Shown in pieces: positions 4,234 through 63,769 of a stretch of DNA of 64,000 nucleotides. A model generated the notes under the pieces. It searched no databases and was not told the origin of the DNA. It saw only the letters and a list, made by a program, of their open reading frames with translations. Origin of the DNA: an uncultured Candidatus Bathyarchaeia archaeon (GTDB lineage Archaea > Thermoproteota > Bathyarchaeia > Bathyarchaeales > Bathyarchaeaceae). The DNA lies in contig CAYNQS010000001.1 of assembly GCA_964399485.1 (NCBI GenBank), positions 64,797 through 128,796 of the forward strand, written 5' to 3'. The position numbers and the translations under genes were made by a program. How positions within the stretch are numbered: the stretch's first letter is position 1; the number at the start of each line of letters is the position of its first letter.

Positions 4234-4311
4234 TGGTGCTCCGGCCGGGATTCGAACCCGGGTCGGCGGCTCGAGAGGCCGTCATACTTAACCGGACTAT
4301 ACTACCGGAGC
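4234..4311 (-). tRNA. tRNA-Glu(CUC), CCA encoded
   Basis: Hand-folded cloverleaf: acceptor GCTCCGG/CCGGAGC, T-arm CCGGG-TTCGAAT-CCCGG, anticodon loop CTCTCGA, genomic CCA. Confidence 0.9.
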
Positions 4312-4340
4312 CTAAGTAATACTATTCATTTCCTTTTCCT

Positions 4341-4348
4341 GTATATAG
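4341..4348 (-). promoter_or_regulatory. Candidate TATA box for tRNA-Glu
   Basis: CTATATAC on the tRNA strand, about 30-37 nt upstream of tRNA position 1. Confidence 0.3.
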
Positions 4349-4475
4349 CCACTTCGTCCTGTTCACTGTACATGACGCACTCAAGCTACTTCCAACAGTT
4401 TATTTTCCTATTCCAGATTCAAAAATGCAGGTTTTTAATATGATTCCTAGAACAAAACGAATTTTCGGAAACTAA

Positions 4476-6269: not shown

Positions 6270-6288
6270 CCTCCAATTTTTCACATGC

Positions 6289-7680: not shown

Positions 7681-8004
7681 GCTTGATTCCCAGCTAAACC
7701 GTTGGCACACTAATCATAAAACCTTTCTCTCTTTCCAATTGTTGCGGGTAAGTGGAAAAAGACTGCGACGAAGCGGTTAATCCAAGAAACAGTCCGAGAC
7801 CTAATCATCCGAATTTGTAGTGTTTTCTGATTTTCTTTTTTATTTCCTTGCTAACCTGTAATAGCAATCCACACTTCTTTAGTCTATAACTGGTGGCTCT
7901 TTAGCAACAAAAAGAAAGAGCGTCAGTCTCCTTCGTCGCCTTCCTTCCCTAAAGAAAAAACAGAAAACAAAACCAATTCACAAACACACAGAGCTACCGC
8001 ATGC

Positions 8005-44048: not shown

Positions 44049-44299
44049 GAGAACTCCACAGCTCCTAGCAGCCGCAGGGCATCCAGCAGCCCCTCACAAT
44101 AGGCAACGGACGTAAGGCTTGTTTCCAGTTTGCCTTCCCTCTGATAATACTTTGCGTCTTCCAAATAACGTTTAGCCCAATCAAAAACTGTCTTCGCTTC
44201 CTCTTCATTAAGGTGCACATCCTCTGGTATTTCTCCAATTTCTTTGATAACCCGTTCAGCGCCCCGAATATATTTTGCAACCAACTCTTCAACCGTCAT
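44042..44299 (-). CDS. DUF357 family protein
   Basis: 85-aa helical protein with YLEDAKYY...AYCEGLLDALRLLG. Overlaps both neighbouring genes, suggesting one operon. Confidence 0.65.
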   Translation of the reverse strand: MTVEELVAKYIRGAERVIKEIGEIPEDVHLNEEEAKTVFDWAKRYLEDAKYYQREGKLETSLTSVAYCEGLLDALRLLGAVEFSW

Positions 44300-45099
44300 T
44301 CAGCCATCCTCCTGACCTCTTTAGGTGCATCTGCCAGTGTGATGAGGGCTTCGGCTTCCATGAAATGTAGTTTACCTGGAAAAATGAGCGTGTGTGGAGG
44401 AGCACCGAAATGATGGTCTATCACCTCTTCTATGTAGCCTGCCTTAACCTCTGGCTGGATTGAGCCTGCCCTAGCCACTCCAATAACCAATGTTCTTGGG
44501 GTGATAACCTTTTCTTTCTTCTGTTTCTCCAGTTCCAGAAGCGTCTGCAGCGCCTCCTTGATGGTCAAGTATCTCTGTTCCTCAGCTTTTATGTCTAAGT
44601 AGCACATGGTGTGAAGTCCTCTCTCCCTGTTTTCTGAAATAACTCTATACGGAGTCTCAGAAACAAACCCCTGCTCAGAAAACGGTATGGTAACAGCTTT
44701 TCCATACTTGTAGTTCTGCAACCCAGAAATCCCTCTGACCGCCGAAACAACGGAAGCACCATGTATAACGCGGGTTCTGATTCCCTGCTTTTCTGCGCTA
44801 ATCCGTAAATCTACATGAGTCGTGGCAATCAACGGGTCTCCCGGAACCAAGAAAACCACTTTCCCCTTTTTAGCCTCTTCAAGAATCTGTTTTCCCTCTT
44901 CCTCCTCTAAGACTCTTCGCGAAACAACCTTGACTGTCTTTCCTGCCATCTCTTCCAGTTTCTTGATGGAGAGTCCAAGCATGAGGCTGGTGTAGAATTC
45001 GGCAAAAACCACGTCTGCCTCTTTCAGTTCTTCGAGTCCCCTGATGGAGATGTCTTTTTCGTCGTATAATCCTAATCCGATAAATACTAGTTCGCTCAT
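44296..45099 (-). CDS. dph5: Diphthine synthase
   Basis: LVFIGLGLYDEKDISIRGLE, GDPLIATTH. Start set at MSELVF. Confidence 0.9.
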   Translation of the reverse strand: MSELVFIGLGLYDEKDISIRGLEELKEADVVFAEFYTSLMLGLSIKKLEEMAGKTVKVVSRRVLEEEEGKQILEEAKKGKVVFLVPGDPLIATTHVDLRISAEKQGIRTRVIHGASVVSAVRGISGLQNYKYGKAVTIPFSEQGFVSETPYRVISENRERGLHTMCYLDIKAEEQRYLTIKEALQTLLELEKQKKEKVITPRTLVIGVARAGSIQPEVKAGYIEEVIDHHFGAPPHTLIFPGKLHFMEAEALITLADAPKEVRRMAE

Positions 45100-45187
45100 A
45101 GCCTTCCTGCTCCCATCTAACCTACAGTCTTTCGGCAACAAAAAATATTAGGGTAACTGTTTTCTCAATAAGAGGATACGTTTGGGT

Positions 45188-45893: not shown

Positions 45894-46712
45894 TCAGAAT
45901 GGCGCAAAGACTCCGATGAACACTAGCCATGCTAGGATTGATTTTGCCACGAAGCTGAGTATGATATAGACTCTTTCGCCGTACAGGTAGTCTCTCCAGC
46001 GTCCAACGCCCTTGTACTGCAGAACCATGTTGACTGCGAAGATGTTGAACAGGAAGAAGTAGATGAACAATATCATGTAAACGAAGGTTGGAGGGTCCAA
46101 GCCCGTGGATTGGATAGCAGCGACGAAATAGGCGTAGAGCACAACCCATGGTGTGAAGCCGGAAATGCTTCCGAGAATAAAGGCTGACCAGCTTGTTTTC
46201 TCCGTTTTCTGGTTCACCACTTCCATTAGGTAACCGAACATTATCATCATCGCATTCAAAACAAAAATCATGACCAGCGACCAGAAATCCCAGACGCCCA
46301 AGAACAATGCAATCAGCACAATCATTATGGAGCTAGAGAATGCATATTCGTACCATCGGTATGGATTCATGCCTTTTTTCAGATTCTCGTTATACTGTTT
46401 ATTCTTAACGAATGCAATAGCGAAATGAGCTAATGCAGAAATCAGCGGGAATGACGCCACAATAATTCCTAAGTATCCTACGGTGAACAAGACCTGTGGG
46501 TCTATAACTATTTGAAATGGTGGACCTTCACCTATTATGAATTTTGGGTAGAAAGTGTAAATGCTACGTTCCCACTCAAGTTGAGTTCCCAACAGCAGCA
46601 TCAATAATCCTTGGATTAGATGCAAAACACCAGCAGCTGCATTGAAGCGCTTAAGATGCGAGAAAGAAATCGGCGAGTTAGCTATAATCTCTTGTCTTTC
46701 TCTAAATTTCAT
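45894..46712 (-). CDS. Heliorhodopsin
   Basis: Seven TM segments, collinear with heliorhodopsin 48C12 as remembered: FNAAAGVLHLIQ, ISALAHF, YRWYEYAFSSSIMIVLIA, LQYKGVGRWRDYLYGERVYIILSFVAKSILAW (TM7 Lys). Confidence 0.9.
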   Translation of the reverse strand: MKFRERQEIIANSPISFSHLKRFNAAAGVLHLIQGLLMLLLGTQLEWERSIYTFYPKFIIGEGPPFQIVIDPQVLFTVGYLGIIVASFPLISALAHFAIAFVKNKQYNENLKKGMNPYRWYEYAFSSSIMIVLIALFLGVWDFWSLVMIFVLNAMMIMFGYLMEVVNQKTEKTSWSAFILGSISGFTPWVVLYAYFVAAIQSTGLDPPTFVYMILFIYFFLFNIFAVNMVLQYKGVGRWRDYLYGERVYIILSFVAKSILAWLVFIGVFAPF

Positions 46713-51475: not shown

Positions 51476-53299
51476 ATGTGTGGAATATTCGGATGTATCT
51501 TACGAACAGGTGATGCTGCATCGATAATTCACAAAGGCTTAAAGAAGCTTGAATATCGGGGCTACGACTCCGTAGGAATAGCAACACTTCAAGGGAGCCA
51601 ATTGTTCATAAAAAAGGATAGCGGAAAAATTGACGATGTTCACGAAATACACAACCTCGACGCTCTTCCCGGCAGACTGGGGATAGGTCATACGCGATGG
51701 GCTACACACGGCGCACCCTATCAAGTTAACGCCCATCCACATACTGACTGTGACAATCAAATTGCTGTTGTTCACAACGGAATTATCGAAAATTTTGCGG
51801 AACTCAAAACTGAACTTGAAGAGTCTGGGCATACTTTTAGGTCAAAAACTGACACCGAGGTCATCGCGCACCTTGTTGAAGAAAAGTTGAAGGAAGGTTT
51901 GTCCCTTGTCGATGCGGTTCGAGAGACTGTGAAACGGTTAGACGGCTCTTACGCCCTCGCTATCATCTCTGTTAAAGAACCTGACAAGATTGTTTGTGCA
52001 CGAGAGGAGAGTCCACTCGTTCTTGGAGTAGCAGAAGACAGCCTATACGTTGCATCTGACATTCCCGCTTTTCTCTCGAATACCAACAAATCTGTTGTTA
52101 TTCAAGACGGAGAGCTTGTGGTTTTAAGTGATAAGGGATACCAAATCCGAAACATTGCTGATTGGAAAGTGGTCACTAGAAAGCCGGAGATTATAGATTG
52201 GGCTCCAGAGATGGCTGAGAAACAGGGCTATCCGCACTTCATGCTGAAGGAGATTCATGAGCAGCCTTTACGCTTAAGAAACACCCTCCGTTTACAGGAC
52301 AAATACTTGGAGTTGATGACCACCTTCTTAGATAGGGCAGGAGAAGTTTTCTTGGTGGCCTGCGGAACCTCCTACCATGCCTGCTTGGCAGCGTCCTACA
52401 TGTTCTCTAAGTTGTCTTTCTTGGCAACTCATCCTATCATAGCCTCCGAGTTTGTTGAACAACATGGAAAATCAGTGAACATCGATAGCACCCTTCTGGT
52501 CGTCAGCCAGTCCGGAGAAACCGCTGACACATTAGAAGCAGTTGAAAGCGCTAGACTGCGCGCCGCTACGGTTCTGGGACTCACTAACATTGTCGGCTCC
52601 ACCCTGACCCGGGTTGCTCGGGTCTACATATGTCAGCAGTCAGGTCCAGAGATAGGAGTCGCAGCTACGAAAACCTTCACCTCTCAGCTCTCTGTGCTCT
52701 CTCAGCTAGCCATAAGACTCGCCAAGAAGCGGGGAAAGATTTCTCATGTGGAGATTGAGGAAATGGAGGAGAAGCTTGAGCAGATACCTGACATCGTTGA
52801 ACGTGTTATCCAGAGTCAAGAAGAAAGTGTGAAACAGTTAGCAAAGAAATATCGAGGCAAGCAAGCCTTCTTCTTTTTGGGACGGGGAATAAGCTCTGCT
52901 GTAGCCCTTGAGGGCAGATTGAAGCTCATGGAGATCGCCTATCTTCCTTCAATAGCTTATCCTGCAGGAGAAAGCAAGCATGGTCCCATCAGTTTGATCG
53001 AGCAGGGTTTTCCTGTGGTTTTTGTATGCCCAAAGGACGGCACACATAAAACGATAATCAGCAACATTATGGAGATGAAGGCTCGCGGCGCCTCAATAAT
53101 CGTGATAATTGAGAAGGGGGATGAGGAGATAAAGAAGTTGGCTGATGATTACGTAGAGATAGACACGGGATTGCCTGAAATCTTGTCTCCAATACCTTTT
53201 GTCACTCCGCTGCAACTCTTCGCCTACTACATGGCACTTGAGCAAGGATGCGACCCAGACAAGCCCCGAAACTTGGCTAAATCCGTGACAGTAAAGTAG
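51476..53299 (+). CDS. glmS: Glutamine--fructose-6-phosphate aminotransferase
   Basis: MCGIFG N-terminal nucleophile, two SIS domains (SQSGETADT), C-terminal KPRNLAKSVTV; 607 aa. Confidence 0.95.
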   Translation: MCGIFGCILRTGDAASIIHKGLKKLEYRGYDSVGIATLQGSQLFIKKDSGKIDDVHEIHNLDALPGRLGIGHTRWATHGAPYQVNAHPHTDCDNQIAVVHNGIIENFAELKTELEESGHTFRSKTDTEVIAHLVEEKLKEGLSLVDAVRETVKRLDGSYALAIISVKEPDKIVCAREESPLVLGVAEDSLYVASDIPAFLSNTNKSVVIQDGELVVLSDKGYQIRNIADWKVVTRKPEIIDWAPEMAEKQGYPHFMLKEIHEQPLRLRNTLRLQDKYLELMTTFLDRAGEVFLVACGTSYHACLAASYMFSKLSFLATHPIIASEFVEQHGKSVNIDSTLLVVSQSGETADTLEAVESARLRAATVLGLTNIVGSTLTRVARVYICQQSGPEIGVAATKTFTSQLSVLSQLAIRLAKKRGKISHVEIEEMEEKLEQIPDIVERVIQSQEESVKQLAKKYRGKQAFFFLGRGISSAVALEGRLKLMEIAYLPSIAYPAGESKHGPISLIEQGFPVVFVCPKDGTHKTIISNIMEMKARGASIIVIIEKGDEEIKKLADDYVEIDTGLPEILSPIPFVTPLQLFAYYMALEQGCDPDKPRNLAKSVTVK

Positions 53300-53387
53300 A
53301 CAAACAAGGCCAAAAGACTAACACATTTAACAAAGTTCTTGAATAACTCTGCAGTGTTGATTGGAGTCCGTGGAGGATGTTTTGTTC

Positions 53388-54020
53388 ATGAAGGCTGTTG
53401 GTCTTTTTTCTGGCGGTAAAGATTCACTCTACGCCGTATATCTTGCCGAAAAAAGGGGTATCGAGGTTGAGCAGCTGTTAACTTTGATTCCAAGTCTTCC
53501 TCGACCCTCTCCTCATGCCGAAAACATGGAAGCTCTGAAGATATTAGCGGAATCCATGGGGAAACCTCAGACAATAGTTGATTTTAAGAAGGAAGGAGCA
53601 TTCATTGAGGCACTCAAAAGCCTTGAGGTTGATGCTTTGGTTGCCGGTGACATTTTTGTTGAGGAGCATGTGGCGGGTCTTAAAGATGTCTGCAGTAAGG
53701 TTGGTTTGGAGTTGTTTGAGCCCCTCTACAGGAGAGACACGTCAGAGGTTTTCGATGAAATCTTCGGTTTAGGATTCAAGGCTTTGATTACGGGTGTAAA
53801 CCTGAAATATCTGGGTGAAGAGTGGCTGGGATACACCATCAGTAAAGAGACGAGCGCCAGCTTTCTGTCGAAGATTGGAAGTGCTGACCCTTTGGGCGAA
53901 AACGGGGAGTTTCATACGCTGGTCCTCGACTGTCCCCTCTACGCGAAATCCTTTAAGGTAAAGGATGTGGAGAAGAAAGCTGCGAAGGGTACGGCTTATC
54001 TTAATGTGACAATTGTGTAA
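53388..54020 (+). CDS. dph6: Diphthine--ammonia ligase (Dph6, MJ0570-type ATP pyrophosphatase)
   Basis: GLFSGGKDS PP-loop and GENGEFHT motif. Start set at MKAVG. Confidence 0.8.
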   Translation: MKAVGLFSGGKDSLYAVYLAEKRGIEVEQLLTLIPSLPRPSPHAENMEALKILAESMGKPQTIVDFKKEGAFIEALKSLEVDALVAGDIFVEEHVAGLKDVCSKVGLELFEPLYRRDTSEVFDEIFGLGFKALITGVNLKYLGEEWLGYTISKETSASFLSKIGSADPLGENGEFHTLVLDCPLYAKSFKVKDVEKKAAKGTAYLNVTIV

Positions 54021-54166
54021 AGTTTTGTATAATCTGCCTTAGAACCTGTGGATTTTCTCTGGTTCGGTGTTTCGTGTTTTTGCAGGAACTTTTATATAGG
54101 TGTTTGGATGGATTATCCATCCGAGTGGGTGAAAACAATGGAAAACAAGATAACCAGCAAACTGGG

Positions 54167-55135
54167 ATGGTGGAAATAACGTCAAGGAAAACAATCATCG
54201 CTATCATACTATTGATAATAGTTGGAGTCACGGCAGTTATTGCCGTTTCACAATTCTACAAACCTGAGGAAGCAACCCCCGGTACGGTAAGCATTATAGA
54301 CGACGTTGGAAGAAACGTTACGATAACCGATTTTCCTCCGCAGAGAATAGTGTCAACGGCTGCTAGTTGTACGGAAATACTTTTCGCGTTGGGACTGGGA
54401 GACAAAGTCGTTGGTGTGGACGAATATTCCGACTATCCTCCAGAGGTTCTAGAAAGGGTTGATGCGGGCACCTTAACAACTGTAGGATCCTTCGCTGAAA
54501 TTAACATAGAGTTGGTTGTCAGCTTAGAACCTGATTTGATTGTGGCAACAAGTGGAGTGCAGAGTGCAGTTGTAGAAAACTTGGAGGGACAAGGCCAAAC
54601 TGTCATTGTTTTATATCCCGAAAGGTTTGACGGAGTACTCACAGACATTTCTTTGGTTGGAGAAATCACGGGCCAAACAGATGAGGCGGAAGAAATTGTA
54701 ACAGATATGCAGGAAAGAGCCCAGGAAATCGCTGAAAAAGTAAAAGACTTACCTAAAATACCTGTCTACATTGAAATGTTCTTCAATGGAGGCTACTGGA
54801 CTTTCGGGTCAGACTCGTATGTTGACGAGTTGATCTCTATGGCTGGTGGAACAAACGTGTTTTCGGGAGTCGGAGGCGGACACATATCAACATCTTCAGA
54901 GGAGATACTTCAAGCGAATCCAGAGATTATAATAATCTCGAGGGGTGCCATGGCAGATTTTTGTGGGCTTACAGCGGAAGTAATTAGAGCACGGCCGGGT
55001 TGGAACGAGATTTCCGCGGTGAAAAATGATCAGATATACGAAGTCACGGAATCTATCATAGTTTTAGGAGTGCCCAGACTGATTGATGGCTTGGAAGCGA
55101 TTGCTGAAATAATTCATCCGGAACTGTTCAGCTGA
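54167..55135 (+). CDS. ABC importer substrate-binding protein (FhuD/BtuF class, siderophore/heme/cobalamin type)
   Basis: N-terminal TM/signal anchor. RIVSTAASCTEILFALGLGDKVVGV and DLIVATSG are typical of Peripla_BP_2 proteins. Confidence 0.85.
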   Translation: MVEITSRKTIIAIILLIIVGVTAVIAVSQFYKPEEATPGTVSIIDDVGRNVTITDFPPQRIVSTAASCTEILFALGLGDKVVGVDEYSDYPPEVLERVDAGTLTTVGSFAEINIELVVSLEPDLIVATSGVQSAVVENLEGQGQTVIVLYPERFDGVLTDISLVGEITGQTDEAEEIVTDMQERAQEIAEKVKDLPKIPVYIEMFFNGGYWTFGSDSYVDELISMAGGTNVFSGVGGGHISTSSEEILQANPEIIIISRGAMADFCGLTAEVIRARPGWNEISAVKNDQIYEVTESIIVLGVPRLIDGLEAIAEIIHPELFS

Positions 55136-55155
55136 TTGCAGAGGACTAAGCAGTA

Positions 55156-55908
55156 ATGACGAACATCTACAACATCACACATTACAGTAGCAGCAACTCC
55201 ATATACATCCTCTTTAAGGGATGCAACTTCCAATGCAAAGGTTGTTTTATAAAGGACACGAAGTGGGACTACCACCTTGCAGATGACGTTCGTGAACATT
55301 TTGAAGCAACCAAAGATATTGAACTGTTATCGTTGAGCGAATTTGAGACTATCGTTAAAGGGCTTAATGTAAAACAAGCTGTTTTGGGCGGAGAAGAGTG
55401 CACTGTCGATGAAGAGCTGCCAAACGTAGTCGATTTGCTCACCAGTCTCGGCATCAAAACTCTCGTAACGACCAACGGTCATCGTTTAAATGAAGAATTG
55501 ATAGAAGAATTGGAGGCGGCAGGGCTCTCGGCTACTCGCATGAGTATCAAGGCATATGAGGACAGTATTCATCGACTTTACACAGGACACACTAACAAGT
55601 CAGTTTTGAAGCATTTCAGGCTTCTCAGCGAAAGTCGAATCAGACCTATTGCAGAGAGCACGTTAATCCCAGGGTTGGTCGAACAAAATGAAATTGAGAG
55701 AATAGCTGAATTTATTGCCATCATAAATCCAGCGATACCGTATAGAGTCGACGGGTTTCTTCCTTCCTATAAGGCGACTTGGCGAGCCCCCTCTCCAGAG
55801 GAAGTGATTAACGCAGTACATGCAGCCCAAAAGTATTTGTGGTGCGTTCACTATCTCCACTGCGCGACAGTACAGCATGAAAATAAAGTCTCCAGTGTAT
55901 ATCCATGA
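55156..55908 (+). CDS. Small radical SAM protein embedded in the ABC operon
   Basis: CNFQCKGC (C-x3-C-x2-C) near the N-terminus, LGGEE glycine-rich motif; 250 aa. Subfamily not recognised. Confidence 0.8.
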   Translation: MTNIYNITHYSSSNSIYILFKGCNFQCKGCFIKDTKWDYHLADDVREHFEATKDIELLSLSEFETIVKGLNVKQAVLGGEECTVDEELPNVVDLLTSLGIKTLVTTNGHRLNEELIEELEAAGLSATRMSIKAYEDSIHRLYTGHTNKSVLKHFRLLSESRIRPIAESTLIPGLVEQNEIERIAEFIAIINPAIPYRVDGFLPSYKATWRAPSPEEVINAVHAAQKYLWCVHYLHCATVQHENKVSSVYP

Positions 55909-55950
55909 ATTAAGTAAGGTGACCCATTATCAGACGATAAAGGAGAGGCG

Positions 55951-57036
55951 ATGACTCCTATGAGTTCAAGTGAAGCTGAGAGTGCGTATTTCAAGCGGTT
56001 TGCTAGATGGAAATTTATCGTCCTCATTCTAATTCTGGCTCTAATACTTACAATGACATTTGCTATCACAGTTGGTCCAGTGCCAATTTCGCCTATTGAT
56101 GCCTATAAGATAGTTATCAATAAGATACCTTTCATAGGCGATTTGATCACAAGCGGGTCATCATCCATGGAGGAATCTGTCATAATGCTAGTAAGATTAC
56201 CCCGTGTGTTGGGTGCGGCACTTGTTGGAATTGCTCTTGCAGTAGCTGGCGTTGTCTTACAGGGGCTATTTAGGAATCCAATGGCCGATCCATACTTAAT
56301 AGGCATTTCTGCTGGAGCAAGCGTGGGCGCATCACTTGCCATAGCTTTTGGAATCGGTTTATCGTTTTTTGGAGTGCTATATTCAGTCCCTCTTATGGCA
56401 TTCATTTTTGCTATTGGCACGGTTTTCTTGGTTTACACTATTTCAAGGACAGGAAAAGAAGTGCCGATGTCAACACTGTTGCTCGTTGGAATAGCTGTCA
56501 ACAGTTTTCTAATGGCTATTACTGCAATCATCAGATTGATTGCCGGTGAAGCAGTACATGCCATAATGACTTGGATGTTTGGCAGCCTTAATTTAGTTGA
56601 CTGGAACTATGTAGAAATCGCCTTACCCTTCGTGGTGGTTGGTGTAGCCCTGATCTATGTTTTTGCCAGAGACCTAAACATAATGCTGCTTGGTGAAGAA
56701 CAAGCTCATCATCTTGGAGTGGATACCGAAAGGCTGAAAAAAATTTTGCTTACCTCTGCAACGTTAATGACAGCGGCAGCAGTTTCAATTAGTGGTATAA
56801 TTGGTTTTGTCGGATTGATTATTCCACATGTAGCAAGAATCTTAGTGGGTCCAGATCACCGAATTTTAATACCATCATCTGCATTAACGGGGGCAATAGT
56901 TCTAATTTTGTGTGACACAGCAGCACGCACCGTCGTTAGACCAATGCAGTTGCCAGTTGGCATAATTACCGCTCTCCTAGGCGCGCCCTTTTTCATATAC
57001 TTAGTACGTAGGAAAAAACGTTCAGTAATAGGGTAA
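55951..57036 (+). CDS. FecCD/BtuC family ABC permease
   Basis: Polytopic, with RLPRVLGAALVG, NPMADPYLIGISAGA and PVGIITALLGAPFF family motifs. Confidence 0.9.
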   Translation: MTPMSSSEAESAYFKRFARWKFIVLILILALILTMTFAITVGPVPISPIDAYKIVINKIPFIGDLITSGSSSMEESVIMLVRLPRVLGAALVGIALAVAGVVLQGLFRNPMADPYLIGISAGASVGASLAIAFGIGLSFFGVLYSVPLMAFIFAIGTVFLVYTISRTGKEVPMSTLLLVGIAVNSFLMAITAIIRLIAGEAVHAIMTWMFGSLNLVDWNYVEIALPFVVVGVALIYVFARDLNIMLLGEEQAHHLGVDTERLKKILLTSATLMTAAAVSISGIIGFVGLIIPHVARILVGPDHRILIPSSALTGAIVLILCDTAARTVVRPMQLPVGIITALLGAPFFIYLVRRKKRSVIG

Positions 57037-57046
57037 GGATGGAAAA

Positions 57047-58336
57047 TTGGTAAACTTGAGAATTAGCGGCATAGACTGCTACTATGGGTCAATTAAAGCA
57101 TTGGATAACATCAATTTTTCAGTTAGAGAAGGCGAATTTGTAGGCATTTTAGGCCCAAACGGATCAGGAAAAACAACTGCTCTCAGGGCAATTAGCAGAA
57201 CCTTGAAACCCAGAATGGGGACGATTTTCTTAGATGACAAAAACATTTACGACATGGAGAACAGGGAGGTAGCAAAAAACGTAGCTGTGGTGCCTCAAGA
57301 GAGCATATCAACCTTTGATTTCACAGTATTAGACATTGTGCTCATGGGACGGAACCCATACATAGACCGTTTCAGACAGGAAAGCAGAGAAGACCTAGCC
57401 ATAGCCAAGAGAGTTATGGAGTTAACAAACACATGGAGTTTAGCTGAAAGACCAGTTAACGAGTTAAGCGGCGGAGAAAAACAGCGCGTCATAATTGCGC
57501 GTGCCCTAACTCAAGAACCGAAAATTCTTTTGCTAGACGAACCGACAAGCCACTTGGACATAAGCAATCAACTAGAGATAATGGACCTCATCAAACGTTT
57601 ATGCGAAACTAAAAAGCTGCTGATAATCGCCGTTTTCCACGACTTCAACCTAGCTGCCCGATACTGCGACTCAATTATTCTTTTGAATGAGGGAAAAATC
57701 GTTGCTGTCGGAAAATCAGACGAGACTCTCACCAGCGAAAACGTCAGAAAAGTTTTCAGCGTTGACACCATCGTCAAAAAGCATCCTGTCACCGGCTTCC
57801 TTCACGTTATCCCCGTTTCAAGACCCCTAAACCAGAAACAAAAAACCCTTTCCATCCATCTGATTAGTGGATGCGGCACAGGTAGCCCCCTGATGAAGAT
57901 TTTGAAGGACGAAGGCTATTTCGTGACTGCTGGGGTTCTCAACCTGCTGGACACTGATCAAGAGACTGCTCAGCTGCTGAAGATTCCAACAACAAGTGAA
58001 GCCCCCTTCTCTCCCATAACCGAAGAAGCTTACACGGCAAACCTGAAGATGATAAACAAAGCCAACACTATAGTTATAACGCCGACCCAGTTTGGTGACG
58101 GCAACCTGCGTAACCTCGAAGCTGCAGAAACGGCTCTGAAAAAAGGAATACAGATCATCCTCCTAGAAAATGGGCCAATCGAAGAGAGGGACTTCACCAA
58201 CGGCAAAGCCACAAAATACTTGGCATCACTCAAAAACAACGGCGCCATAACCGTGAAGAGCAACAAGGAACTCCTACATTTTCTCGACAAACTAGAAAAG
58301 AAAAACAACAAAAATTCCCATAAGAAAAAGGGATGA
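57047..58336 (+). CDS. ABC ATPase (FecE/BtuD type) with about 170-aa C-terminal Rossmann-like extension
   Basis: GPNGSGKTT, LSGGEKQRV and LLLDEPTSHLD, followed by an extra domain beginning IHLISGCGTGSPLMKILKDEGYFVTAGVLNLLD. Confidence 0.9.
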   Translation: MVNLRISGIDCYYGSIKALDNINFSVREGEFVGILGPNGSGKTTALRAISRTLKPRMGTIFLDDKNIYDMENREVAKNVAVVPQESISTFDFTVLDIVLMGRNPYIDRFRQESREDLAIAKRVMELTNTWSLAERPVNELSGGEKQRVIIARALTQEPKILLLDEPTSHLDISNQLEIMDLIKRLCETKKLLIIAVFHDFNLAARYCDSIILLNEGKIVAVGKSDETLTSENVRKVFSVDTIVKKHPVTGFLHVIPVSRPLNQKQKTLSIHLISGCGTGSPLMKILKDEGYFVTAGVLNLLDTDQETAQLLKIPTTSEAPFSPITEEAYTANLKMINKANTIVITPTQFGDGNLRNLEAAETALKKGIQIILLENGPIEERDFTNGKATKYLASLKNNGAITVKSNKELLHFLDKLEKKNNKNSHKKKG

Positions 58337-58419
58337 GGCAACAGAAACTGTTACACAACCCTCTTTCTGGAAAAATTAAATACATTTTTATCTCCTCGTT
58401 AAACTCTTGAATACTGCTC

Positions 58420-59508
58420 ATGGTGAAGATTTTGAAGTCCAATGGACCCCTATTCATTCTGCCTTGGAGATGCACACAAGCCTGCACCAGCAGTTGTCTA
58501 CACTGCGGTTTCGCATCAAACCCCCCCGCCTCTGACGCCCTCGGAACCAAAGAAGTCATGCGTATCGTGGACGAAATCTACGATTTTGGGGCAACTTATC
58601 TAGGATTAAGCGGCGGAGAACCCCTTCTGCGAAAAGACCTACCAGAAATAATCGGCTACGCCAAAAACGTCGGCTTGAACGTGAGTCTCATAACCAACGG
58701 CTACCATGTTGACGGCAAAATCTTCGACAACCTAGTTAGACACGATGTTCGCGTCTCACTGAGTGTTGACGGAACAGAAGAAATCAACGATGCTATACGA
58801 GGAAAGGGCGCATACGAAAAAGCTGTTTCAGCCATGGAAAAAACTTCTAAAGCGGGGCTGCTGGACTGTCTTGTGGCAACCCTTGCCAATGTTGACGCAA
58901 CCCGCAATAACCTCACCTCCGAAGATATGGAGCACGTCATCCAACTGGCTGAAAGGTATGGCGCCCGGTGGGTGGTGATTCACGGCTTCATTCCCTTCAA
59001 CCGAACAAAAGAGCACCTCGCCAAGTCTCCATCCCCACAGCAGTACGAGAAGATTTGGAACCAAGTCTATGATTTGCGGCTGAAGTACTACGGAAAACCT
59101 GAAGTCAACGTTTATTGCCCCTTCTTCGCCCGCATCGCCAAGGAACGGGGCATGCCGGATCTCCATCACTGGTTCAACAACATTTTCCTTGGCAAGTGCT
59201 CCATCGCCGGCAAATACATGAGCGTAATCGAAAACGGAGACGTTATCCCCTGCAGCTTCAACGACCATATCCGACTTGGAAACGTTCAGGATAAGCCGCT
59301 GAAGCAAATCTGGGATGAACATCAAACCTCAGCACTTACTCGCAAGCTCAGGGATCGGAGTAACCTGAAAGGCAAATGTGGCGTCTGCGAGTACCGCGAA
59401 ATCTGTGGCGGATGTCGAACCAGAGCAGAGATGTACACTGGAGATATTTTCGCCTCTGACCCAGCATGCGGATACGTGCCTAAACTATTGCGTGAAAAAA
59501 CTGAATAA
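58420..59508 (+). CDS. Radical SAM/SPASM protein, NirJ/AhbC/AhbD-like (paralog 1)
   Basis: CTSSCLHC cluster motif, SGGEPLL, C-terminal GKCGVCEYREICGGCRTRAE SPASM motif. Confidence 0.85.
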   Translation: MVKILKSNGPLFILPWRCTQACTSSCLHCGFASNPPASDALGTKEVMRIVDEIYDFGATYLGLSGGEPLLRKDLPEIIGYAKNVGLNVSLITNGYHVDGKIFDNLVRHDVRVSLSVDGTEEINDAIRGKGAYEKAVSAMEKTSKAGLLDCLVATLANVDATRNNLTSEDMEHVIQLAERYGARWVVIHGFIPFNRTKEHLAKSPSPQQYEKIWNQVYDLRLKYYGKPEVNVYCPFFARIAKERGMPDLHHWFNNIFLGKCSIAGKYMSVIENGDVIPCSFNDHIRLGNVQDKPLKQIWDEHQTSALTRKLRDRSNLKGKCGVCEYREICGGCRTRAEMYTGDIFASDPACGYVPKLLREKTE

Positions 59509-59569
59509 CCATTCATCTAAATGCATCTGTTTCTTTCCTTATACTAAGTAAACATTGACTGAAAACACA

Positions 59570-59577
59570 TTATAATT
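59570..59577 (+). promoter_or_regulatory. Candidate TATA box for the left M2 element
   Basis: TTATAATT 30 nt upstream of the conserved block, preceded by the A-rich AAAACAC. Confidence 0.3.
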
Positions 59578-59599
59578 CACGTTCATACCTAATTTTTTA

Positions 59600-59661
59600 G
59601 TCAAGAAAATTTGACTAACGTATGGTGTGGTTGGTCAAGAATCCTTTACAAAAATCCTTTT
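59600..59661 (+). ncRNA. M2 element, left copy (candidate leader RNA, small RNA or operator)
   Basis: 62 nt, 57/62 identical to the reverse complement of 62532..62593. Contains GTCAA-N6-TTGAC and TTGACTAA-N12-TTGGTCAA. Confidence 0.35.
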
Positions 59662-59702
59662 ATTACCTACTCTCCACGTAATCAATTGTTGGAGCTCCTA
59701 AC

Positions 59703-59837
59703 ATGAAAAAGACCGCATTAAGATTCGTTATGTTGCTACATTCTACTAGAAAAATCAATCTCACAAAAGCGGCACCTAAGACCATAGTTGCTCCTGCGCT
59801 CACGCAAAAAAGCAACGACTGGATAGCACGCGGCTAA
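59703..59837 (+). CDS. Possible 44-aa ORF upstream of radical SAM paralog 2
   Basis: ATG after GGAGCTCCTAAC. Translation is MKKTALRFVMLLHSTRKINLTKAAPKTIVAPALTQKSNDWIARG. No other support. Confidence 0.2.
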   Translation: MKKTALRFVMLLHSTRKINLTKAAPKTIVAPALTQKSNDWIARG

Positions 59838-59909
59838 CACAGTGGGACTCCAACACTCTAACCCCTACTAACATAATAAGGGAGTAATGTAAAGGAGTGC
59901 GAACAAACC

Positions 59910-60959
59910 GTGAATAGAAGACCTCTCCTGTATATGATGACTTGGAGATGTACGAGAGCTTGTAACTATAACTGTTTGCACTGCAGTTTCGGTTCCAGCC
60001 CTGCCGCCATTAACGAGATCGACACCAAAGGTGGAATGCGCATAGTTGATGAACTTTATGAGATGGGGGCAAAGTGGTTTGGGCTGAGCGGCGGAGAACC
60101 TCTTCTGCGGAAGGACATTTTTGAGATCATTAAGCATGCGAAGAGTCTGGGCATGAATGTGAGCCTCATAACCAACGGCTACTATGTTAAGGGGGATATT
60201 CTCGACAACCTAATCCGAAACGAGGTTATGACCGCGGTAAGTCTTGATGGAAGAGAGGAGTCGCACGATTTTATACGCGGCAAAGGCGCCTATGCAACAG
60301 CTCTTCTGGCTATGGAGAATTTGTCTGAGGGCGGAATTTTTGATTGCGTCGTAAGTACACTGAATAAGCGTAACTGCTCGGAGGTGGATCATGTAGCCCA
60401 GGTGGCGCATGAGTATGATGCTACTCGTGTGGTTTATCACAATTACATTCCTGTTGGCAGAGCTGAGGAGCATCTGGAGTTGGCTCCCACCCCACAGCAG
60501 TATGAGACGGTTTTGAATAGAATTTACGATTTGATGCAGGAGTATAGAGGAAAACTCGGCGTCAACGTTTATTGTCCCTTCTTCGCTCGCATCGCCAAGG
60601 AAAGGGGTATGCCCGACTTTGATTACTGGTTCAACAATGTGTTTCTTGGGCAGTGCTTTATTGGCGGCAGATATATTGGTCTGCTGGAAAATGGTGACAT
60701 GCGACCCTGTGGCTTTAATGAGGGTTACCGTATGGGCAACATTAAGAACAAGTTGATGAAGGAGATTTGGGCTGACATGCAGACATCAGAGTTCACTCGT
60801 AAGCTCAGGGATCGGAGTAACCTGAAGGGCAAATGTGGCGTCTGCGAATACCGCGAAATCTGTGGCGGATGCCGAACCAGAGCAGAAATCTACACTGGCG
60901 ACCTCTTCCAGTCTGACCCAGCATGCGGATACGTGCCTAAACTATTGCGCGAAAAATAG
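59910..60959 (+). CDS. Radical SAM/SPASM protein, NirJ/AhbC/AhbD-like (paralog 2)
   Basis: CNYNCLHC, SGGEPLL and the same C-terminal SPASM motif as paralog 1. GTG start after AAGGAGTG. Confidence 0.85.
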   Translation: MNRRPLLYMMTWRCTRACNYNCLHCSFGSSPAAINEIDTKGGMRIVDELYEMGAKWFGLSGGEPLLRKDIFEIIKHAKSLGMNVSLITNGYYVKGDILDNLIRNEVMTAVSLDGREESHDFIRGKGAYATALLAMENLSEGGIFDCVVSTLNKRNCSEVDHVAQVAHEYDATRVVYHNYIPVGRAEEHLELAPTPQQYETVLNRIYDLMQEYRGKLGVNVYCPFFARIAKERGMPDFDYWFNNVFLGQCFIGGRYIGLLENGDMRPCGFNEGYRMGNIKNKLMKEIWADMQTSEFTRKLRDRSNLKGKCGVCEYREICGGCRTRAEIYTGDLFQSDPACGYVPKLLREK

Positions 60960-60972
60960 GGCGACAACAAAG

Positions 60973-62268
60973 TTATTTGTTTTCTGCGAATTCCCACGCG
61001 ATGTTGGCTTTCCAGAGGTCTCCAAGTTCGGTTATTTTGATTTCTTTTTCGTTTATTTCGATTAGTCCCTTTTCTTTCAGTCTTTTCAGTTGTTCAGGGT
61101 ACACTTCTTCGGGGAGCTTTCCGAACCTTTCCTTGAATTCCAGTTTATCTACGGGTAGGCGCAGGTAGAGTTTTGTCATCACCTTTCTCATCATGTCTTC
61201 GTCTGTAGATTTCGAGAGTTTTGCGATCGGAAATCTTCCTTCCTGAACAGTTGCAACGTAGTCGTTCGCCAGCTCGATGTTGGAGTAAGAAAATCTCTGA
61301 AGATATCCCATGAAGCATCCTGCTCCTGTCGTTAGGATGCCTGCCCAAGGCCATCCGTTTAGGCAGTTCTCTTTGGCGTGCCATTCTACTCTGGAGTAGC
61401 GGTCGTGACCAATCGGCTTGTAGCCCGCCTCCGTGAACAGTTCGTATGCTGCAACATACATTTTCTTCTCCAGTTCCGGGTCTGCTTGGGGCGGCACCTT
61501 CCCAGCTTGCATCTGTTTATACAAGACCGTTTCAGGGTAAACTTCAAGGCAGTATGCGTCAACTTCCGCATCTAATTCGATTGCCGTCTTCACAGTGTCG
61601 ATCCAGCTTTCCAGTGTTTGTCCTGGAATGCTGTACATTATGTCTATGCAGACGCAGAGTCCAAGTTTTCTGGCGAGTCTGACTTCCTCTTTTACGTGTT
61701 CTGCGCTGTCCGGCAGATTCAGCATCCTTCGGAGTTTGTCGTCGAAGGTTTGGGCTCCCATGTCCACTTGGAAGACGCCGTATTCTGCGGCTGCAACTAG
61801 CTTCTCTTTGGAGAAGCTTCTGGATGAGCCCGTGATTTTGATGAAGTAGTCGTCTACTGTGTTGAAGTTTTGTTCGCAGAATTTTATCAGATCAAACATC
61901 TGGTCTTTGGTCATGAGGCTTGGTGTTCCTCCGCCCAGAACTATTTCGTCGAATTCGCTGGTTTTGACATACTTTGTTTCAGCGTACATCATCAGCTCTT
62001 TCTTTAAAGCCTTGAGATATGGTTCCATCTTGGCGCTGGAGTAAGGGTTGTTTGGGTAGTAGCAGAAGGTGCATCTGGAGTCGCAGAAGGATATCCACGG
62101 CTGGAGCTCCATCACCTTGTTTGACGTGTTCTCGGTTGCCAGGAACCCCATGAATTCCTTGTATGTTTCAGGTGCGATGTCCGGATAATCTCGGTATGTG
62201 TAAGGCGGCCAGCTCTCTCTTGAACTGTATGTGTTCTCTTTCTCTGCTTCGGGGATAGCTGATTTCAT
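60973..62268 (-). CDS. HemN-family radical SAM protein (HemN/HemW/ChuW-like)
   Basis: CDSRCTFC cluster motif, LGGGTPS, C-terminal HemN_C-like winged-helix tail; 431 aa. Confidence 0.85.
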   Translation of the reverse strand: MKSAIPEAEKENTYSSRESWPPYTYRDYPDIAPETYKEFMGFLATENTSNKVMELQPWISFCDSRCTFCYYPNNPYSSAKMEPYLKALKKELMMYAETKYVKTSEFDEIVLGGGTPSLMTKDQMFDLIKFCEQNFNTVDDYFIKITGSSRSFSKEKLVAAAEYGVFQVDMGAQTFDDKLRRMLNLPDSAEHVKEEVRLARKLGLCVCIDIMYSIPGQTLESWIDTVKTAIELDAEVDAYCLEVYPETVLYKQMQAGKVPPQADPELEKKMYVAAYELFTEAGYKPIGHDRYSRVEWHAKENCLNGWPWAGILTTGAGCFMGYLQRFSYSNIELANDYVATVQEGRFPIAKLSKSTDEDMMRKVMTKLYLRLPVDKLEFKERFGKLPEEVYPEQLKRLKEKGLIEINEKEIKITELGDLWKANIAWEFAENK

Positions 62269-62424
62269 TTCGAATTTCCCCAGATTGCCGTTTTATAGAA
62301 TATTTGGGAATAATATAAACTTGCGTTTTTCATTGTTATTGCCAGAATGTTCGGGTTATTTGGCGTTTGCAAGCTTATATTCGGTGCCAGAAGAGAAAAA
62401 CTGTTTTTGTTGTTGCCTGTTTTT

Positions 62425-62483
62425 CCAGAAAAAATATTGTTTTCAACAATCAACTGTTATTAGTCTCCTAATATGAATGATTT
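62425..62483 (+). repeat. M1 repeat, copy G
   Basis: CCAGAAAAAATATTGTTTTCAACAATCAACTGTTATTAGTCTCCTAATATGAATGATTT. Confidence 0.8.
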
Positions 62484-62531
62484 ATGATGCCGTACGACCA
62501 ATTTCCGTGCCTATATCGCCAGTGAGAGGCT

Positions 62532-62593
62532 AAAAGGGTTTTTGTAAAGGATTCTTGACCAACCACACCATAGTTTAGTCAAGTTTTTTTGAC
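62532..62593 (-). ncRNA. M2 element, right copy (inverted relative to the left copy)
   Basis: The reverse complement reads GTCAAAAAAACTTGACTAAACTATGGTGTGGTTGGTCAAGAATCCTTTACAAAAACCCTTTT. Confidence 0.35.
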
Positions 62594-62617
62594 AAACCAT
62601 TCAATCGGTTCATAATT

Positions 62618-62625
62618 GTTTATAA
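62618..62625 (-). promoter_or_regulatory. Candidate TATA box for the right M2 element
   Basis: TTATAAAC on the minus strand, 32 nt upstream of the conserved block, preceded by AAAACCAC. Confidence 0.3.
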
Positions 62626-62683
62626 CCGTGGTTTTGGATTGGAACAGCGTAACTTATAAGAAAACTTCGCCAATTGAACAACT

Positions 62684-63769
62684 GTGAATACTATGCCAAA
62701 GAAGCTTACTTACTCGGAGGCGGGCGTGGACAGGGAAACGAGAGCAAAATCCAAGCAGTCTCTCTCAATGTTGAAACAAACTTACACGTTAGGGAGGTAC
62801 GGAAAAGTTGTTCAACTGCCTTACGGCAACATCTTCCTCGCCGGCGACCGCTACTTGGACCTTGTTATTGAAGGGGTTGGAACCAAAGTTCTGTTGGCAC
62901 AGCTGGCAGACAAGTATGACACTATCGGAGTGGACGGGGTTGCCATGGCAGTCAACGATGTTATACGGTCAGGCGCCACTCCCTTAGCTTTGGTTGACAA
63001 CTTTCACGCTCACGTTTCTGACCCAGATTTGGTTCGGGAGTGGCTGAAGGGCATAGTGAAAGGCGCCGAAGAGTCGGATTGTCCAGTCCCGGGAGGCGAA
63101 ATCGGAGATGTGGCAGCCATCATAAAGGGGCTGACAAAGGGAAAAAGCTTCGACCTGATCGTCGCCAGCGTAGGCGAAGTGGATGAGAAGGATGTGATCT
63201 CTGGGCAAGCCATAAAGCCTGGTGACGTTGTTGTGGGTTTAAGAAGCTCCGGCGTTCACAGCAATGGAATATCATTGGTAAGGAAGGTTCTTTTCAAGGA
63301 GTGGGGAGGCAAATACGAGCCCTTCGATGTTCCCGACGGATTCGACAGAGAAATCGTTTACGAGGCGCTGGAGCCCACGCGAATTTATGTTAAGCCTTTC
63401 CTGAAGGCGGCTAAAGAGGTTAAGCTGAAGGGTGCTGTTCACGTCACCGGGGACGCTTACATGAAGTTCGACAGATTCATGAAATATTCGAAAGGGATAG
63501 GGTTCGAATTCACCAATTTCAAGCCACAGCCAATCTTCGAGCTTATCCAGCAGACAGCCCCTGAAGTTGGAGGCGAAATAACAGACGAGGAGATGCTGAA
63601 AACCTTTAACATGGGATGGGGTTTCGCCGTAGTCATAGACAAAAACGATGAGGATGAAGTTATCACGATCTTTGAGAAGGGTGGCGTTGAAGCTGAACAA
63701 ATCGGAAAAGTAACCAGTTCAGGAAAAGTTGTTGCCAAATATAAGGATAAAAAGCTGGAGTTACGGTAA
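62684..63769 (+). CDS. purM: Phosphoribosylformylglycinamidine cyclo-ligase (AIR synthase)
   Basis: TYSEAGVD N-terminus, DGVGTK-like EGVGTKV, SSGVHSNG and NMGWGF motifs. The start may be the ATG at 62693. Confidence 0.95.
   Translation: MNTMPKKLTYSEAGVDRETRAKSKQSLSMLKQTYTLGRYGKVVQLPYGNIFLAGDRYLDLVIEGVGTKVLLAQLADKYDTIGVDGVAMAVNDVIRSGATPLALVDNFHAHVSDPDLVREWLKGIVKGAEESDCPVPGGEIGDVAAIIKGLTKGKSFDLIVASVGEVDEKDVISGQAIKPGDVVVGLRSSGVHSNGISLVRKVLFKEWGGKYEPFDVPDGFDREIVYEALEPTRIYVKPFLKAAKEVKLKGAVHVTGDAYMKFDRFMKYSKGIGFEFTNFKPQPIFELIQQTAPEVGGEITDEEMLKTFNMGWGFAVVIDKNDEDEVITIFEKGGVEAEQIGKVTSSGKVVAKYKDKKLELR

Follow-up and report, generated by a model that had tools for sequence, protein, structure and literature searches.

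The DNA analysed here, a window of 64,000 nucleotides (nt) on contig CAYNQS010000001.1 of an uncultured Bathyarchaeia archaeon close to Ca. Bathyarchaeum, carries a locus in which a BtuFCD-like importer is accompanied by four radical S-adenosylmethionine (SAM) genes. With a probability of roughly 0.6, this locus serves the uptake and salvage of corrinoids, that is cobinamide and complete cobamides, with the roles proposed below for all of its parts. For its core (53361 to 58336) a role in corrinoid uptake and salvage is well supported; such units are of a known kind, but this one includes a new and conserved radical SAM component. This component is a protein of 250 amino acids (aa), referred to as rSAM250 and encoded between the binding protein (BP) and the permease of the importer. 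The other radical SAM genes encode two paralogous radical SAM/SPASM proteins (SPASM1 and SPASM2) and a HemN-like protein; of the four, only rSAM250 goes with importers and cobamide genes across lineages. A first-pass annotation of this DNA had described seven genes, all of which are present and clearly genes, with the layout and domains borne out by open reading frames (ORFs) and Pfam, and its reading of the locus as one for uptake and processing of a tetrapyrrole-class compound stands. Its picture of one importer wired to all four radical SAM enzymes does not, as SPASM1 is linked to the importer in one lineage only, and SPASM2 and the HemN-like gene appear to be regulated separately and are usually importer-free.

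The BP, permease, and ATPase of a type II importer are encoded together and in the same direction with gaps of 10 to 42 nt, an architecture of the BtuFCD type. The best solved homologue of the BP is a vitamin B12-binding protein (5ysc, 9.5e-27). Among NCBIfam models, the permease scores best with haloarchaeal BtuC (PRK09535, 345 bits, cut-off 461) and the ATPase with the corrinoid ABC transporter ATPase, or haloarchaeal BtuD (PRK09536, 326 bits, cut-off 537). The extra domain of the ATPase recognized in the first pass is a C-terminal extension of about 170 aa assigned to PF27219 (MJ0874), which alone matches positions 264 to 354 of PRK09536 (4e-9). A search for solved sequence homologues of this domain returned none, and its single-sequence AlphaFold2 model is mediocre (predicted local distance difference test (pLDDT) 69) and gave only generic Rossmann/flavodoxin-like matches in Foldseek (template modelling (TM) scores ≤0.53). 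The locus resembles the BtuFCD system of the Halobacterium sp. NRC-1 type in its combination of BP, FecCD permease, and ATPase with the same C-terminal extension, in its best curated models for permease and ATPase, and in having relatives in cbiZ/cbiB/cobY/cobS clusters. It differs in scoring below the equivalog cut-offs, in having the salvage enzymes outside this window, and in the radical SAM gene between BP and permease and the radical SAM/SPASM genes after the ATPase. By homology and context, the membrane-anchored BtuF-like BP would capture a corrinoid outside the cell and BtuCD would import it.

The functional unit begins one gene before the start assigned in the first pass (54167), at 53361. 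The sequence of the protein encoded there identifies it as a putative DUF71/COG2102 PP-loop ATP pyrophosphatase of the DUF71-B12 subgroup and not as Dph6. Its best NCBIfam match is the PAB0415 family (189 bits, cut-off 250), its score with the Dph6_archaeal model is below the cut-off (118 versus 197 bits), it has an ENGEFH motif at residue 180, and its gene lies directly upstream of the BP gene. The motif ENGEF/YH is the signature of the DUF71-B12 subgroup, versus EGGE/DxE in Dph6, and 75 of 102 DUF71-B12 genes adjoin BtuCDF and 18 of 102 adjoin cbiB (de Crecy-Lagard et al. 2012, PMC3541065). An ENGEFH-type DUF71 gene beside a transporter is an independent published marker, and the adjacent transporter is therefore indicated to be a corrinoid importer. 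The window shares with the published clusters an ENGEFH PP-loop gene beside a Btu-type transporter, in relatives also beside cbiB, cobS, and cobY; radical SAM is mentioned zero times in that paper, whereas the clusters here and in many metagenomic relatives contain one or two small radical SAM genes. Among the stretches of relatives recovered by genome and metagenome scans (labelled L001 to L146), the order GlmS-DUF71-BP is kept in L008 to L010, L044, L048, L059, L066, L096, L097, and L101, and in L038 the DUF71 gene lies between the ATPase and cobS-cobY.

Several observations weigh against a corrinoid as the cargo. From the sequence alone the cargo is ambiguous, with all curated models below cut-off, including the BtuF model on the BP (89 bits against 234). 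In the solved-structure search with the BP, iron- and heme-binding proteins come close behind 5ysc, and a search of this kind with the permease ranks the hemin permease HmuU first. The window is also without cbiZ, cbiB, cobS, cobY, and cobT, and the assignment therefore leans on relatives and on the DUF71-B12 marker. Archaeal salvage of cobinamide proceeds by way of CbiZ, CbiB, CobY, and CobS. It is the context that is decisive where sequence is not, because orthologous importers sit in operons for cobamide salvage and the nucleotide loop. In L098 and L102 the order is cbiB-cobD / BP-rSAM250-FecCD-ATPase-AsnB-like-DUF71-cobT-cobS-cobY, with BPs 60% to 61% and permeases 68% to 69% identical to those of the window, and the importers of L108, L111, L115, L127, and L132 have comparable contexts. 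The BP is 60% to 69% identical to the BPs preceding rSAM250 homologues in the cobamide clusters L098, L099, L101, and L102. L003 and L004 have the order SPASM-like-BP-DUF4015-rSAM310-cbiZ-rSAM250-FecCD-ATPase-cobD-cbiP-cbiB-cbiZ/cobZ-cobS-cobY, with comparable contexts in L005 to L007, and L038 has BP-FecCD-ATPase-DUF71-cobS-cobY as one operon, with a SPASM gene 2 kb off. Thus, in addition to the adjacent DUF71-B12 gene of the window, genes from the set cbiB, cobD, cobT, cobS, cobY, and cbiZ flank orthologous importers in L003 to L007, L038, L098, L102, L108, L111, L115, L127, and L132. In Bathyarchaeia, BtuFCD has been reported to adjoin CbiZ, and most Bathy-8 metagenome-assembled genomes encode only the transporter and salvage enzymes (PMC11697101). 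On this basis we predict that the importer quite probably carries a corrinoid, either cobinamide or a cobamide. The tetrapyrrole class proposed in the first pass is retained, and heme and siderophores, which it had also considered, give way to a corrinoid as the most likely cargo, given the DUF71-B12 marker and the cob/cbi context in relatives.

That a radical SAM gene lies within the importer operon, which the first pass noted as unusual, is a conserved feature. A metagenome scan with rSAM250 yielded 80 loci, and loci of at least 5 kb were examined for a B12 context, taken as a Btu-type importer, a cobamide salvage gene, or DUF71 within 8 kb. Such a context is present in 20 of 23 loci with homologues of at least 40% identity and in 10/21 below 40%, and it reaches down to members of about 30% identity. 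It extends to importer-free loci, with the orders cbiZ-rSAM310..rSAM250-cobD-cbiB-cobS-cobY in L113 and cobT-cbiZ-cobY-cobD-cobS-cbiB-rSAM250 in L136, L141, L143, L145, and L146. The rSAM310 gene encodes a paralogue of rSAM250 (31% identical) that is often found beside rSAM250 and cbiZ. A distant member (E 9e-57) ends a BP-FecCD-ATPase-rSAM operon in another assembly, and the distant relatives P0330 and P0356, on contigs that are too short or unrelated, provided no informative context. The rSAM250 family is physically linked to cobamide salvage, family-wide. The searched literature contained no description of rSAM250 and no link between radical SAM enzymes and salvage through CbiZ or BtuFCD. 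A word-indexed search recovered 41 proteins of the family, and a full hidden Markov model scan of 1.84 billion representatives recovered 104 at E ≤1e-30 and 414 at E ≤1e-10.

Other results count against the corrinoid reading of the locus as a whole. The neighbourhood counts across loci are raw and ignore shared ancestry. In the syntenic genomes of Ca. Bathyarchaeum the importer is present and rSAM250 is not, and the enzyme is therefore dispensable for import. SPASM genes occur near rSAM250 homologues in only 5/44 loci, and HemN-like genes in 1/44. The importers of Ca. Bathyarchaeum that lack rSAM250 are 38% to 41% (BP), 50% to 52% (permease), and 68% to 75% (ATPase) identical to those of the window, and the more distant L098 and L102 importers, which have rSAM250, are closer to the window in both BP and permease. 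Similarity of the BP and permease tracks the presence of rSAM250, and we conclude that rSAM250 goes with a particular type of BP and permease.

None of the NCBIfam models reaches its cut-off on rSAM250. In the family alignment the only invariant cysteines are the three of the cluster, accompanied by GGxE and other SAM-binding features. The AlphaFold2 model (pLDDT 93) has PflA as its best fold in the PDB (3c8f/8fo0, TM 0.73 to 0.76, 17% to 18% identity), and rSAM250 is like PflA and other small glycyl-radical activases in size, in its single CxxxCxxC, and in its partial TIM barrel with an open side. It differs from them in lacking a neighbouring glycyl-radical enzyme gene and in its cobamide salvage context. 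Neither in the window nor in most of the related loci was a glycyl-radical enzyme gene found next to rSAM250; L003 and L004 have an NRDD gene about 5 kb upstream on the opposite strand. A role as an NrdG/PflA activase was rejected, as the scores are far below the cut-offs (PFLA 36 versus 232, NrdG2 38 versus 131, YjjW 43 versus 250 bits) and the true NrdG is encoded elsewhere in the window (4525 to 5235).

In the proposed mechanism rSAM250, co-translated between BP and permease, would carry out SAM-dependent radical chemistry on the incoming corrinoid and so would make it accessible to the archaeal CbiZ/CbiB/CobY/CobS route. Some action of the family on a corrinoid is a tentative proposal, to which we give somewhat less than even odds. 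A specific version, in which the 5'-deoxyadenosyl radical from SAM is captured by cob(II)inamide, would yield adenosylcobinamide without an adenosyltransferase of the ATP:cob(I)yrinate type and may involve rSAM310 as well. The substrate of CbiZ is adenosylated cobinamide. The cob clusters looked at cover all steps of salvage (BtuFCD, CbiZ, CobZ-like, CbiB, CobD, CobT, CobS, and CobY), and no CobA/PduO adenosyltransferase was found among the unassigned ORFs checked in clusters L102, L111, L113, L127, and L136. These two points make radical adenosylation an attractive reading, although we regard it as a long shot. Alternatively, rSAM250 would remove a foreign upper or lower ligand of the corrinoid by radical chemistry.

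Other gene families recur in the cobamide salvage clusters. An AsnB-like PP-loop protein (PF00733, about 320 aa) is encoded beside DUF71-B12 in L102 (11205 to 12197), L127 (12682 to 13677), L113 (1733 to 2680), L136 (9431 to 10390), and L091 (7455 to 8426), and the presence of two amidoligase-type enzymes per cluster hints at re-amidation of corrinoid carboxylates. A DUF4015 TIM-barrel gene ("putative glycosyl hydrolase") recurs beside cbiZ or the Btu BP in L003 (7523 to 8317), L005 (9130 to 9924), L017 (17797 to 18744 and 20143 to 21027), L072, and L079, and its product is a candidate for a further cobamide-remodelling enzyme. In the cobamide operon of L102 a metalloenzyme resembling cofactor-independent phosphoglycerate mutase (5700 to 6932) is encoded directly beside cobD. 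L-threonine kinase is a listed pathway gap in haloarchaea (PMC8305020), and this metalloenzyme is a possible candidate for it.

SPASM1 (362 aa) and SPASM2 (349 aa) are 61% identical, with nearly identical last 50 residues. In both, the radical SAM cysteine motif lies within residues 14 to 29 without an N-terminal extension, and at least seven conserved downstream cysteines, including CxxCx5CxxC, form the SPASM set for two auxiliary clusters, an AhbD-like architecture. AhbD, AhbC, and NirJ, which belong to the radical SAM/SPASM enzymes, act on tetrapyrroles derived from siroheme, whose acetate and propionate side chains they remove or convert. No curated families score better with the pair, which has the same length and architecture as AhbD, but the scores reach no more than about 40% of the cut-offs: 197 (SPASM1) and 204 (SPASM2) bits against 500 for AhbD (TIGR04545), 143 and 160 against 650 for AhbC (TIGR04546), and 138 and 148 against 515 for NirJ (TIGR04051). 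PqqE follows at 117 and 103 bits against 381, and the AhbC/AhbD, NirJ, PqqE, mycofactocin, anSME, and other maturase models were all rejected as far below cut-off. The idea of an orthodox AhbC and AhbD serving siroheme-dependent heme synthesis draws on the best NCBIfam matches of the two proteins (AhbD, TIGR04053, and NirJ2) and on the name "AdoMet-dependent heme synthase" given to homologues by some sources. It is contradicted by these scores, by the two proteins being paralogues of one type and not one AhbC and one AhbD, and by the failure to find ahbA/ahbB (siroheme decarboxylase) in the window or among the recurrent gene families of the characterised SPASM loci. Siroheme synthesis genes accompanying the SPASM genes were likewise not found in the window. 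The family is, moreover, essentially Bathyarchaeia-specific with a conserved neighbourhood of its own. We give the orthodox reading next to no chance; the first pass had likewise not read the locus as a textbook Ahb one and had seen no AhbA/AhbB genes in the window, and neither orthodox proteins nor a complete ahb pathway beside them came to light.

The SPASM genes were placed in context by a genome scan of 78 loci with local synteny. Most Bathyarchaeia have one core SPASM copy, which in distant Bathyarchaeia is 54% to 59% identical to SPASM2 versus 47% to 52% to SPASM1. SPASM1 is probably a lineage-specific duplicate of this pan-Bathyarchaeia AhbD/NirJ-like enzyme that was recruited directly behind the importer. 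SPASM1 orthologues of 74% to 91% identity directly follow the importer ATPase in L008 to L010, L019, L044, L048, L059, L097, and L100, and in L066 after a gap of 2.5 kb. The importer is immediately upstream of a SPASM1-type copy in nine genome loci of the Bathyarchaeum lineage as well as in L097 and L100, usually with ATPase-SPASM1 gaps of 29 to 134 nt. A TATA-like ACATTTTTAT about 30 nt before the SPASM1 ATG suggests that the gene has its own promoter besides that of the operon. Links of the family to cobamide genes are also found elsewhere: cobT-cobS-cobY-SPASM in L028 (CobT confirmed by TIGR00303, 395 bits against a cut-off of 240), cobY-SPASM in L040, DUF71-SPASM in L016 and L023, and a distant SPASM relative (28% identity) that heads the cobamide operon of L003. 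A cobamide salvage gene accompanies 17/78 SPASM loci, and a salvage gene, importer, or DUF71 accompanies 25/78 (raw counts, with shared ancestry ignored). These counts are above chance expectation for a few single-copy genes, and the link of the SPASM genes to corrinoids is rated as only moderate because they ignore shared ancestry.

The core SPASM neighbourhood points in another direction. It consists of a B12-radical SAM gene, the HemN-like gene, a 221-aa membrane protein, RnfD/RnfC-like genes, SPASM, two glycosyltransferase-like membrane proteins of about 765 aa, a small B12-binding protein, and MtrH. Most SPASM/HemN-like neighbourhoods hold RnfC/D-like, membrane, glycosyltransferase-like, and B12-radical SAM genes and not cobamide genes, which is evidence against a corrinoid role for these genes, and part of this neighbourhood may reflect inherited synteny and not function. 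Two unrelated systems might lie side by side: a corrinoid unit of importer, DUF71, and rSAM250, and SPASM/HemN-like genes of some other Bathyarchaeia housekeeping pathway, such as modification of glycerol dialkyl or monoalkyl glycerol tetraether (GDGT/GMGT)-type lipids or another cofactor, with adjacency as inherited synteny. The core neighbourhood is kept in dozens of importer-free loci, in Bathyarchaeum the importer takes the place of the HemN/Rnf block upstream of SPASM, and SPASM2 and the HemN-like gene have promoter cassettes of their own. There is also a precedent in Gms (GMGT synthase), an AhbD homologue shown by experiment to act on lipids; it cross-links archaeal tetraether lipids (PMC11214058, PMC11186832), has an N-terminal COG4001 lipid-binding domain of about 100 aa and a length of more than 400 aa, and clusters with a B12-radical SAM methylase (PMC11214058). 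Like the SPASM family, Gms is homologous to AhbD, is abundant among Bathyarchaeota, and is frequently encoded near genes for B12-binding radical SAM proteins. However, the COG4001 domain and the greater length belong to Gms and not to SPASM1 or SPASM2, and their identity as Gms was rejected on these grounds. A Ca. Bathyarchaeum genome (L023) does encode a separate AhbD-like protein, of 471 aa, that has an extension of this kind. Further points against two systems are the repeated position of the SPASM family beside cobT-cobS-cobY, cbiZ, and DUF71 in differing arrangements, its relative at the head of the L003 operon, and the position of SPASM1 directly behind the ATPase throughout one lineage. 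We consider two independent systems unlikely, although this is an alternative to be taken seriously. The L023 protein (CP070820.1, 13980 to 15395) has a Gms-type look, with a 117-aa N-terminal extension and 308 bits with the AhbD model against 500, and adjoins a HemN-like paralogue; its genome is that of a Ca. Bathyarchaeum and not that of the organism of the window.

SPASM enzymes are often peptide maturases, and a peptide-maturase role of the pair had been offered as the alternative in the first pass. In such a role they would be maturases of a ribosomally synthesized and post-translationally modified peptide (RiPP) or of pyrroloquinoline quinone (PQQ) type, acting on a small precursor encoded nearby. 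Among solved structures the family profile matches PqqE best (1e-24), a PqqE-like "PQQ synthase" has been proposed in work on Bathy-6, and a 44-aa ORF (59703 to 59837) preceded by GGAG lies between the paralogues. This ORF was rejected as a RiPP precursor: the spacer DNA aligns between the window, L059, L008, and L048, but frame and sequence differ and it is a promoter/operator motif that is conserved instead. The pair are also without an N-terminal RRE or PqqD-like domain, with the cysteine motif starting at residues 14 to 22, and PqqE and all maturase models score below the tetrapyrrole-type models and far under their cut-offs. We therefore regard a peptide-maturase role as very improbable. 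By homology, the most plausible target of SPASM2 and the HemN-like protein would be the side chains of a tetrapyrrole-type cofactor, and their tie to corrinoids is only moderately supported.

The HemN-like protein is placed by its sequence in a tightly conserved clade that appears to be Bathyarchaeia-specific. Among the 120 homologues listed, identities are 66% to 93%, and the few with a named source are from Bathyarchaeia or Bathyarchaeota. In the wider family HemN is coproporphyrinogen dehydrogenase, HemW a heme chaperone, and ChuW/HutW an anaerobic heme-degrading methyltransferase. The window protein shares with these the radical SAM core, the GGGTP second-SAM motif, HemN_C, and full HemN length, and it matches solved HemN (1olt) at 3e-23. 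It is without a fourth cysteine after CxxxCxxC and is below all three cut-offs, with 191 bits against 400 for ChuW/HutW (TIGR04107), 154 against 205 for HemW (TIGR00539), and 137 against 325 for HemN (TIGR00538). The partner of its gene is an AhbD-like SPASM gene and not chuX/chuY or heme synthesis genes. In 33 of the 78 loci, mostly without an importer, the HemN-like gene and a SPASM gene are no more than 10 kb apart, and the two are directly convergent in L011, L013, L016, L025, L026, L034, and L091; in L012 they are about 1.1 kb and one gene apart. An alternative reading of the whole locus would be uptake and anaerobic degradation of heme or an iron-tetrapyrrole, with the HemN-like protein opening the ring and freeing iron in the manner of ChuW/HutW and the AhbD-like enzymes processing the products. 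ChuW/HutW is indeed the best NCBIfam model of the HemN-like protein, the BP also matches IsdE and ShuT-type heme binders, and HmuU is the best solved homologue of the permease. Yet the ChuW/HutW score is less than half of its cut-off and similar to those of HemW and HemN, the HemN-like gene is missing beside the same importer in Ca. Bathyarchaeum and is usually importer-free, and the markers and relatives of the importer are cobamide-linked (DUF71-B12, cobS/cobY/cobT/cbiB/cbiZ). No chuX/chuY-like or other heme genes were found in the window. Uptake and breakdown of heme is thus highly unlikely, and corrinoid uptake and salvage remains the preferred reading of the locus.

Two promoter/operator cassettes precede SPASM2 and the HemN-like gene and together form a 66-nt inverted repeat with 91% identity, about 220 to 240 nt from the two start codons. 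Each arm contains two GTCAAG-N4-CTTGAC-type palindromes 34 nt apart and a B recognition element (BRE)/TATA-like AAAAATCCTTTTAT. A 30-nt core of the cassette has only two occurrences in the window when up to 7 mismatches are allowed, and the motif is kept upstream of SPASM2 in L008/L009, L048, L059, and L097. The near-identical cassettes ahead of SPASM2 and the HemN-like gene are direct sequence evidence that the two genes share a regulation distinct from that of the importer operon. An extra gene occupies the HemN-like leader in L097, and the leader in the window is therefore taken to be a deletion remnant. Cassette-like motifs also occur ahead of a few unrelated uncharacterised genes in other Bathyarchaeia loci. 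Genes for RnfD-like and RnfC-like proteins and the 221-aa membrane protein are kept between the HemN-like and SPASM genes, without other Rnf subunits, in L017, L021, L040 (e.g., 2166 to 4441), L042, L051, L057, L062, and others, and this block may supply the radical SAM enzymes with electrons.

The gene order of the locus (Table 1) is conserved in relatives, a point the first pass had left to be settled. An independent contig, L097 (SMTZ1_10009335), has it in full at 86% to 97% aa identity, from rSAM250 and the two SPASM genes to the HemN-like gene in its convergent orientation, and it is kept in part in L001 and L100. The common neighbourhood in Ca. Bathyarchaeum genomes, among them the complete chromosome CP070820.1, is Trm5/TYW2, DUF371, HTH/S-layer, GlmS, DUF71, BP, FecCD, ATPase with C-terminal domain, and SPASM. 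Where a source is named, homologues of all parts of the locus are almost exclusively from Bathyarchaeia. Gaps in the window measure 20 nt (BP-rSAM250), 42 nt (rSAM250-permease), 10 nt (permease-ATPase), 83 nt (ATPase-SPASM1), 401 nt (SPASM1-SPASM2), and 13 nt (SPASM2 to the convergent HemN-like gene). All four radical SAM proteins have CxxxCxxC, and the HemN-like protein also has GGGTP.

Table 1 Features of the corrinoid-type importer locus and its adjoining radical SAM genes (window coordinates)
Feature	Position	Strand	Evidence or remark
DUF71-B12 PP-loop protein (putative)	53361-54020	+	Pfam Diphthami_syn_2 2.7e-40; ENGEFH motif
BtuF-like BP with N-terminal membrane anchor	54167-55135	+	Pfam Peripla_BP_2 1e-41
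rSAM250	55156-55908	+	Pfam Radical_SAM 1.5e-20; single CxxxCxxC cluster, PflA-like fold
BtuC/FecCD-type permease	55951-57036	+	Pfam FecCD 5e-97
BtuD-type ABC ATPase	57047-58336	+	Pfam ABC_tran 1.6e-34
Archaeal C-terminal accessory domain of the ATPase, residues ~261-429	57827-58336	+	PF27219 MJ0874 (precomputed)
SPASM1, AhbD/NirJ-like	58420-59508	+	Pfam Radical_SAM and SPASM
Promoter/operator cassette before SPASM2	59597-59662	+	One arm of the 66-nt inverted repeat
SPASM2, AhbD/NirJ-like	59910-60959	+	Pfam Radical_SAM and SPASM
HemN-family radical SAM protein, full HemN length	60973-62268	-	Pfam Radical_SAM and HemN_C
Second promoter/operator cassette, before the HemN-like gene	62531-62596	-	Other arm of the 66-nt inverted repeat

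The base composition of the locus is unremarkable, and a survey of the window with Pfam and tblastn found only housekeeping genes in the rest of it and neither ahbA/ahbB nor cob/cbi genes. The sole TP_methylase of the window (44296 to 45141) was rejected as a corrin methylase and is the diphthine synthase Dph5. An Rfam search of 53000 to 63000 gave zero matches and a leader RNA fold has a z-score of only -1.86; a riboswitch or other RNA in the long leaders is not supported. Elsewhere the window has a heliorhodopsin gene (45894 to 46712, minus strand; PF18761, 308 bits) in an otherwise anaerobic Bathyarchaeia-type genome, a NikR-type nickel-responsive regulator (7273 to 7710, minus strand; NikR_C, 3e-25), and an AIPR abortive-infection protein (38426 to 40108, plus strand) in the patch of lowest GC content (38 to 40 kb, GC 0.35), which is probably a small defence island.

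Which organisms can live in anoxic communities is shaped by the salvage and remodelling of cobamides. What is new here are the radical SAM accessories; the B12 salvage system is already known. The AhbD-like and HemN-like pair, found throughout Bathyarchaeia, currently goes under the wrong names of heme synthase and coproporphyrinogen oxidase; none of the examined loci from organisms with this pair showed ahb genes. Two radical SAM clades are thereby exposed as systematically misannotated. To our knowledge, the known cobamide-remodelling enzymes (CbiZ, CbiR, and CobS) are all hydrolytic or transferases. Members of a small radical SAM family lie within Btu importer and cbiZ/cbiB/cobS operons, in Bathyarchaeia and out to relatives of about 30% identity. 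By implication, a step of archaeal B12 salvage that is sensitive to oxygen has been missing so far, and rSAM250, with 250 aa and one cluster, is a concrete and clonable candidate for it.

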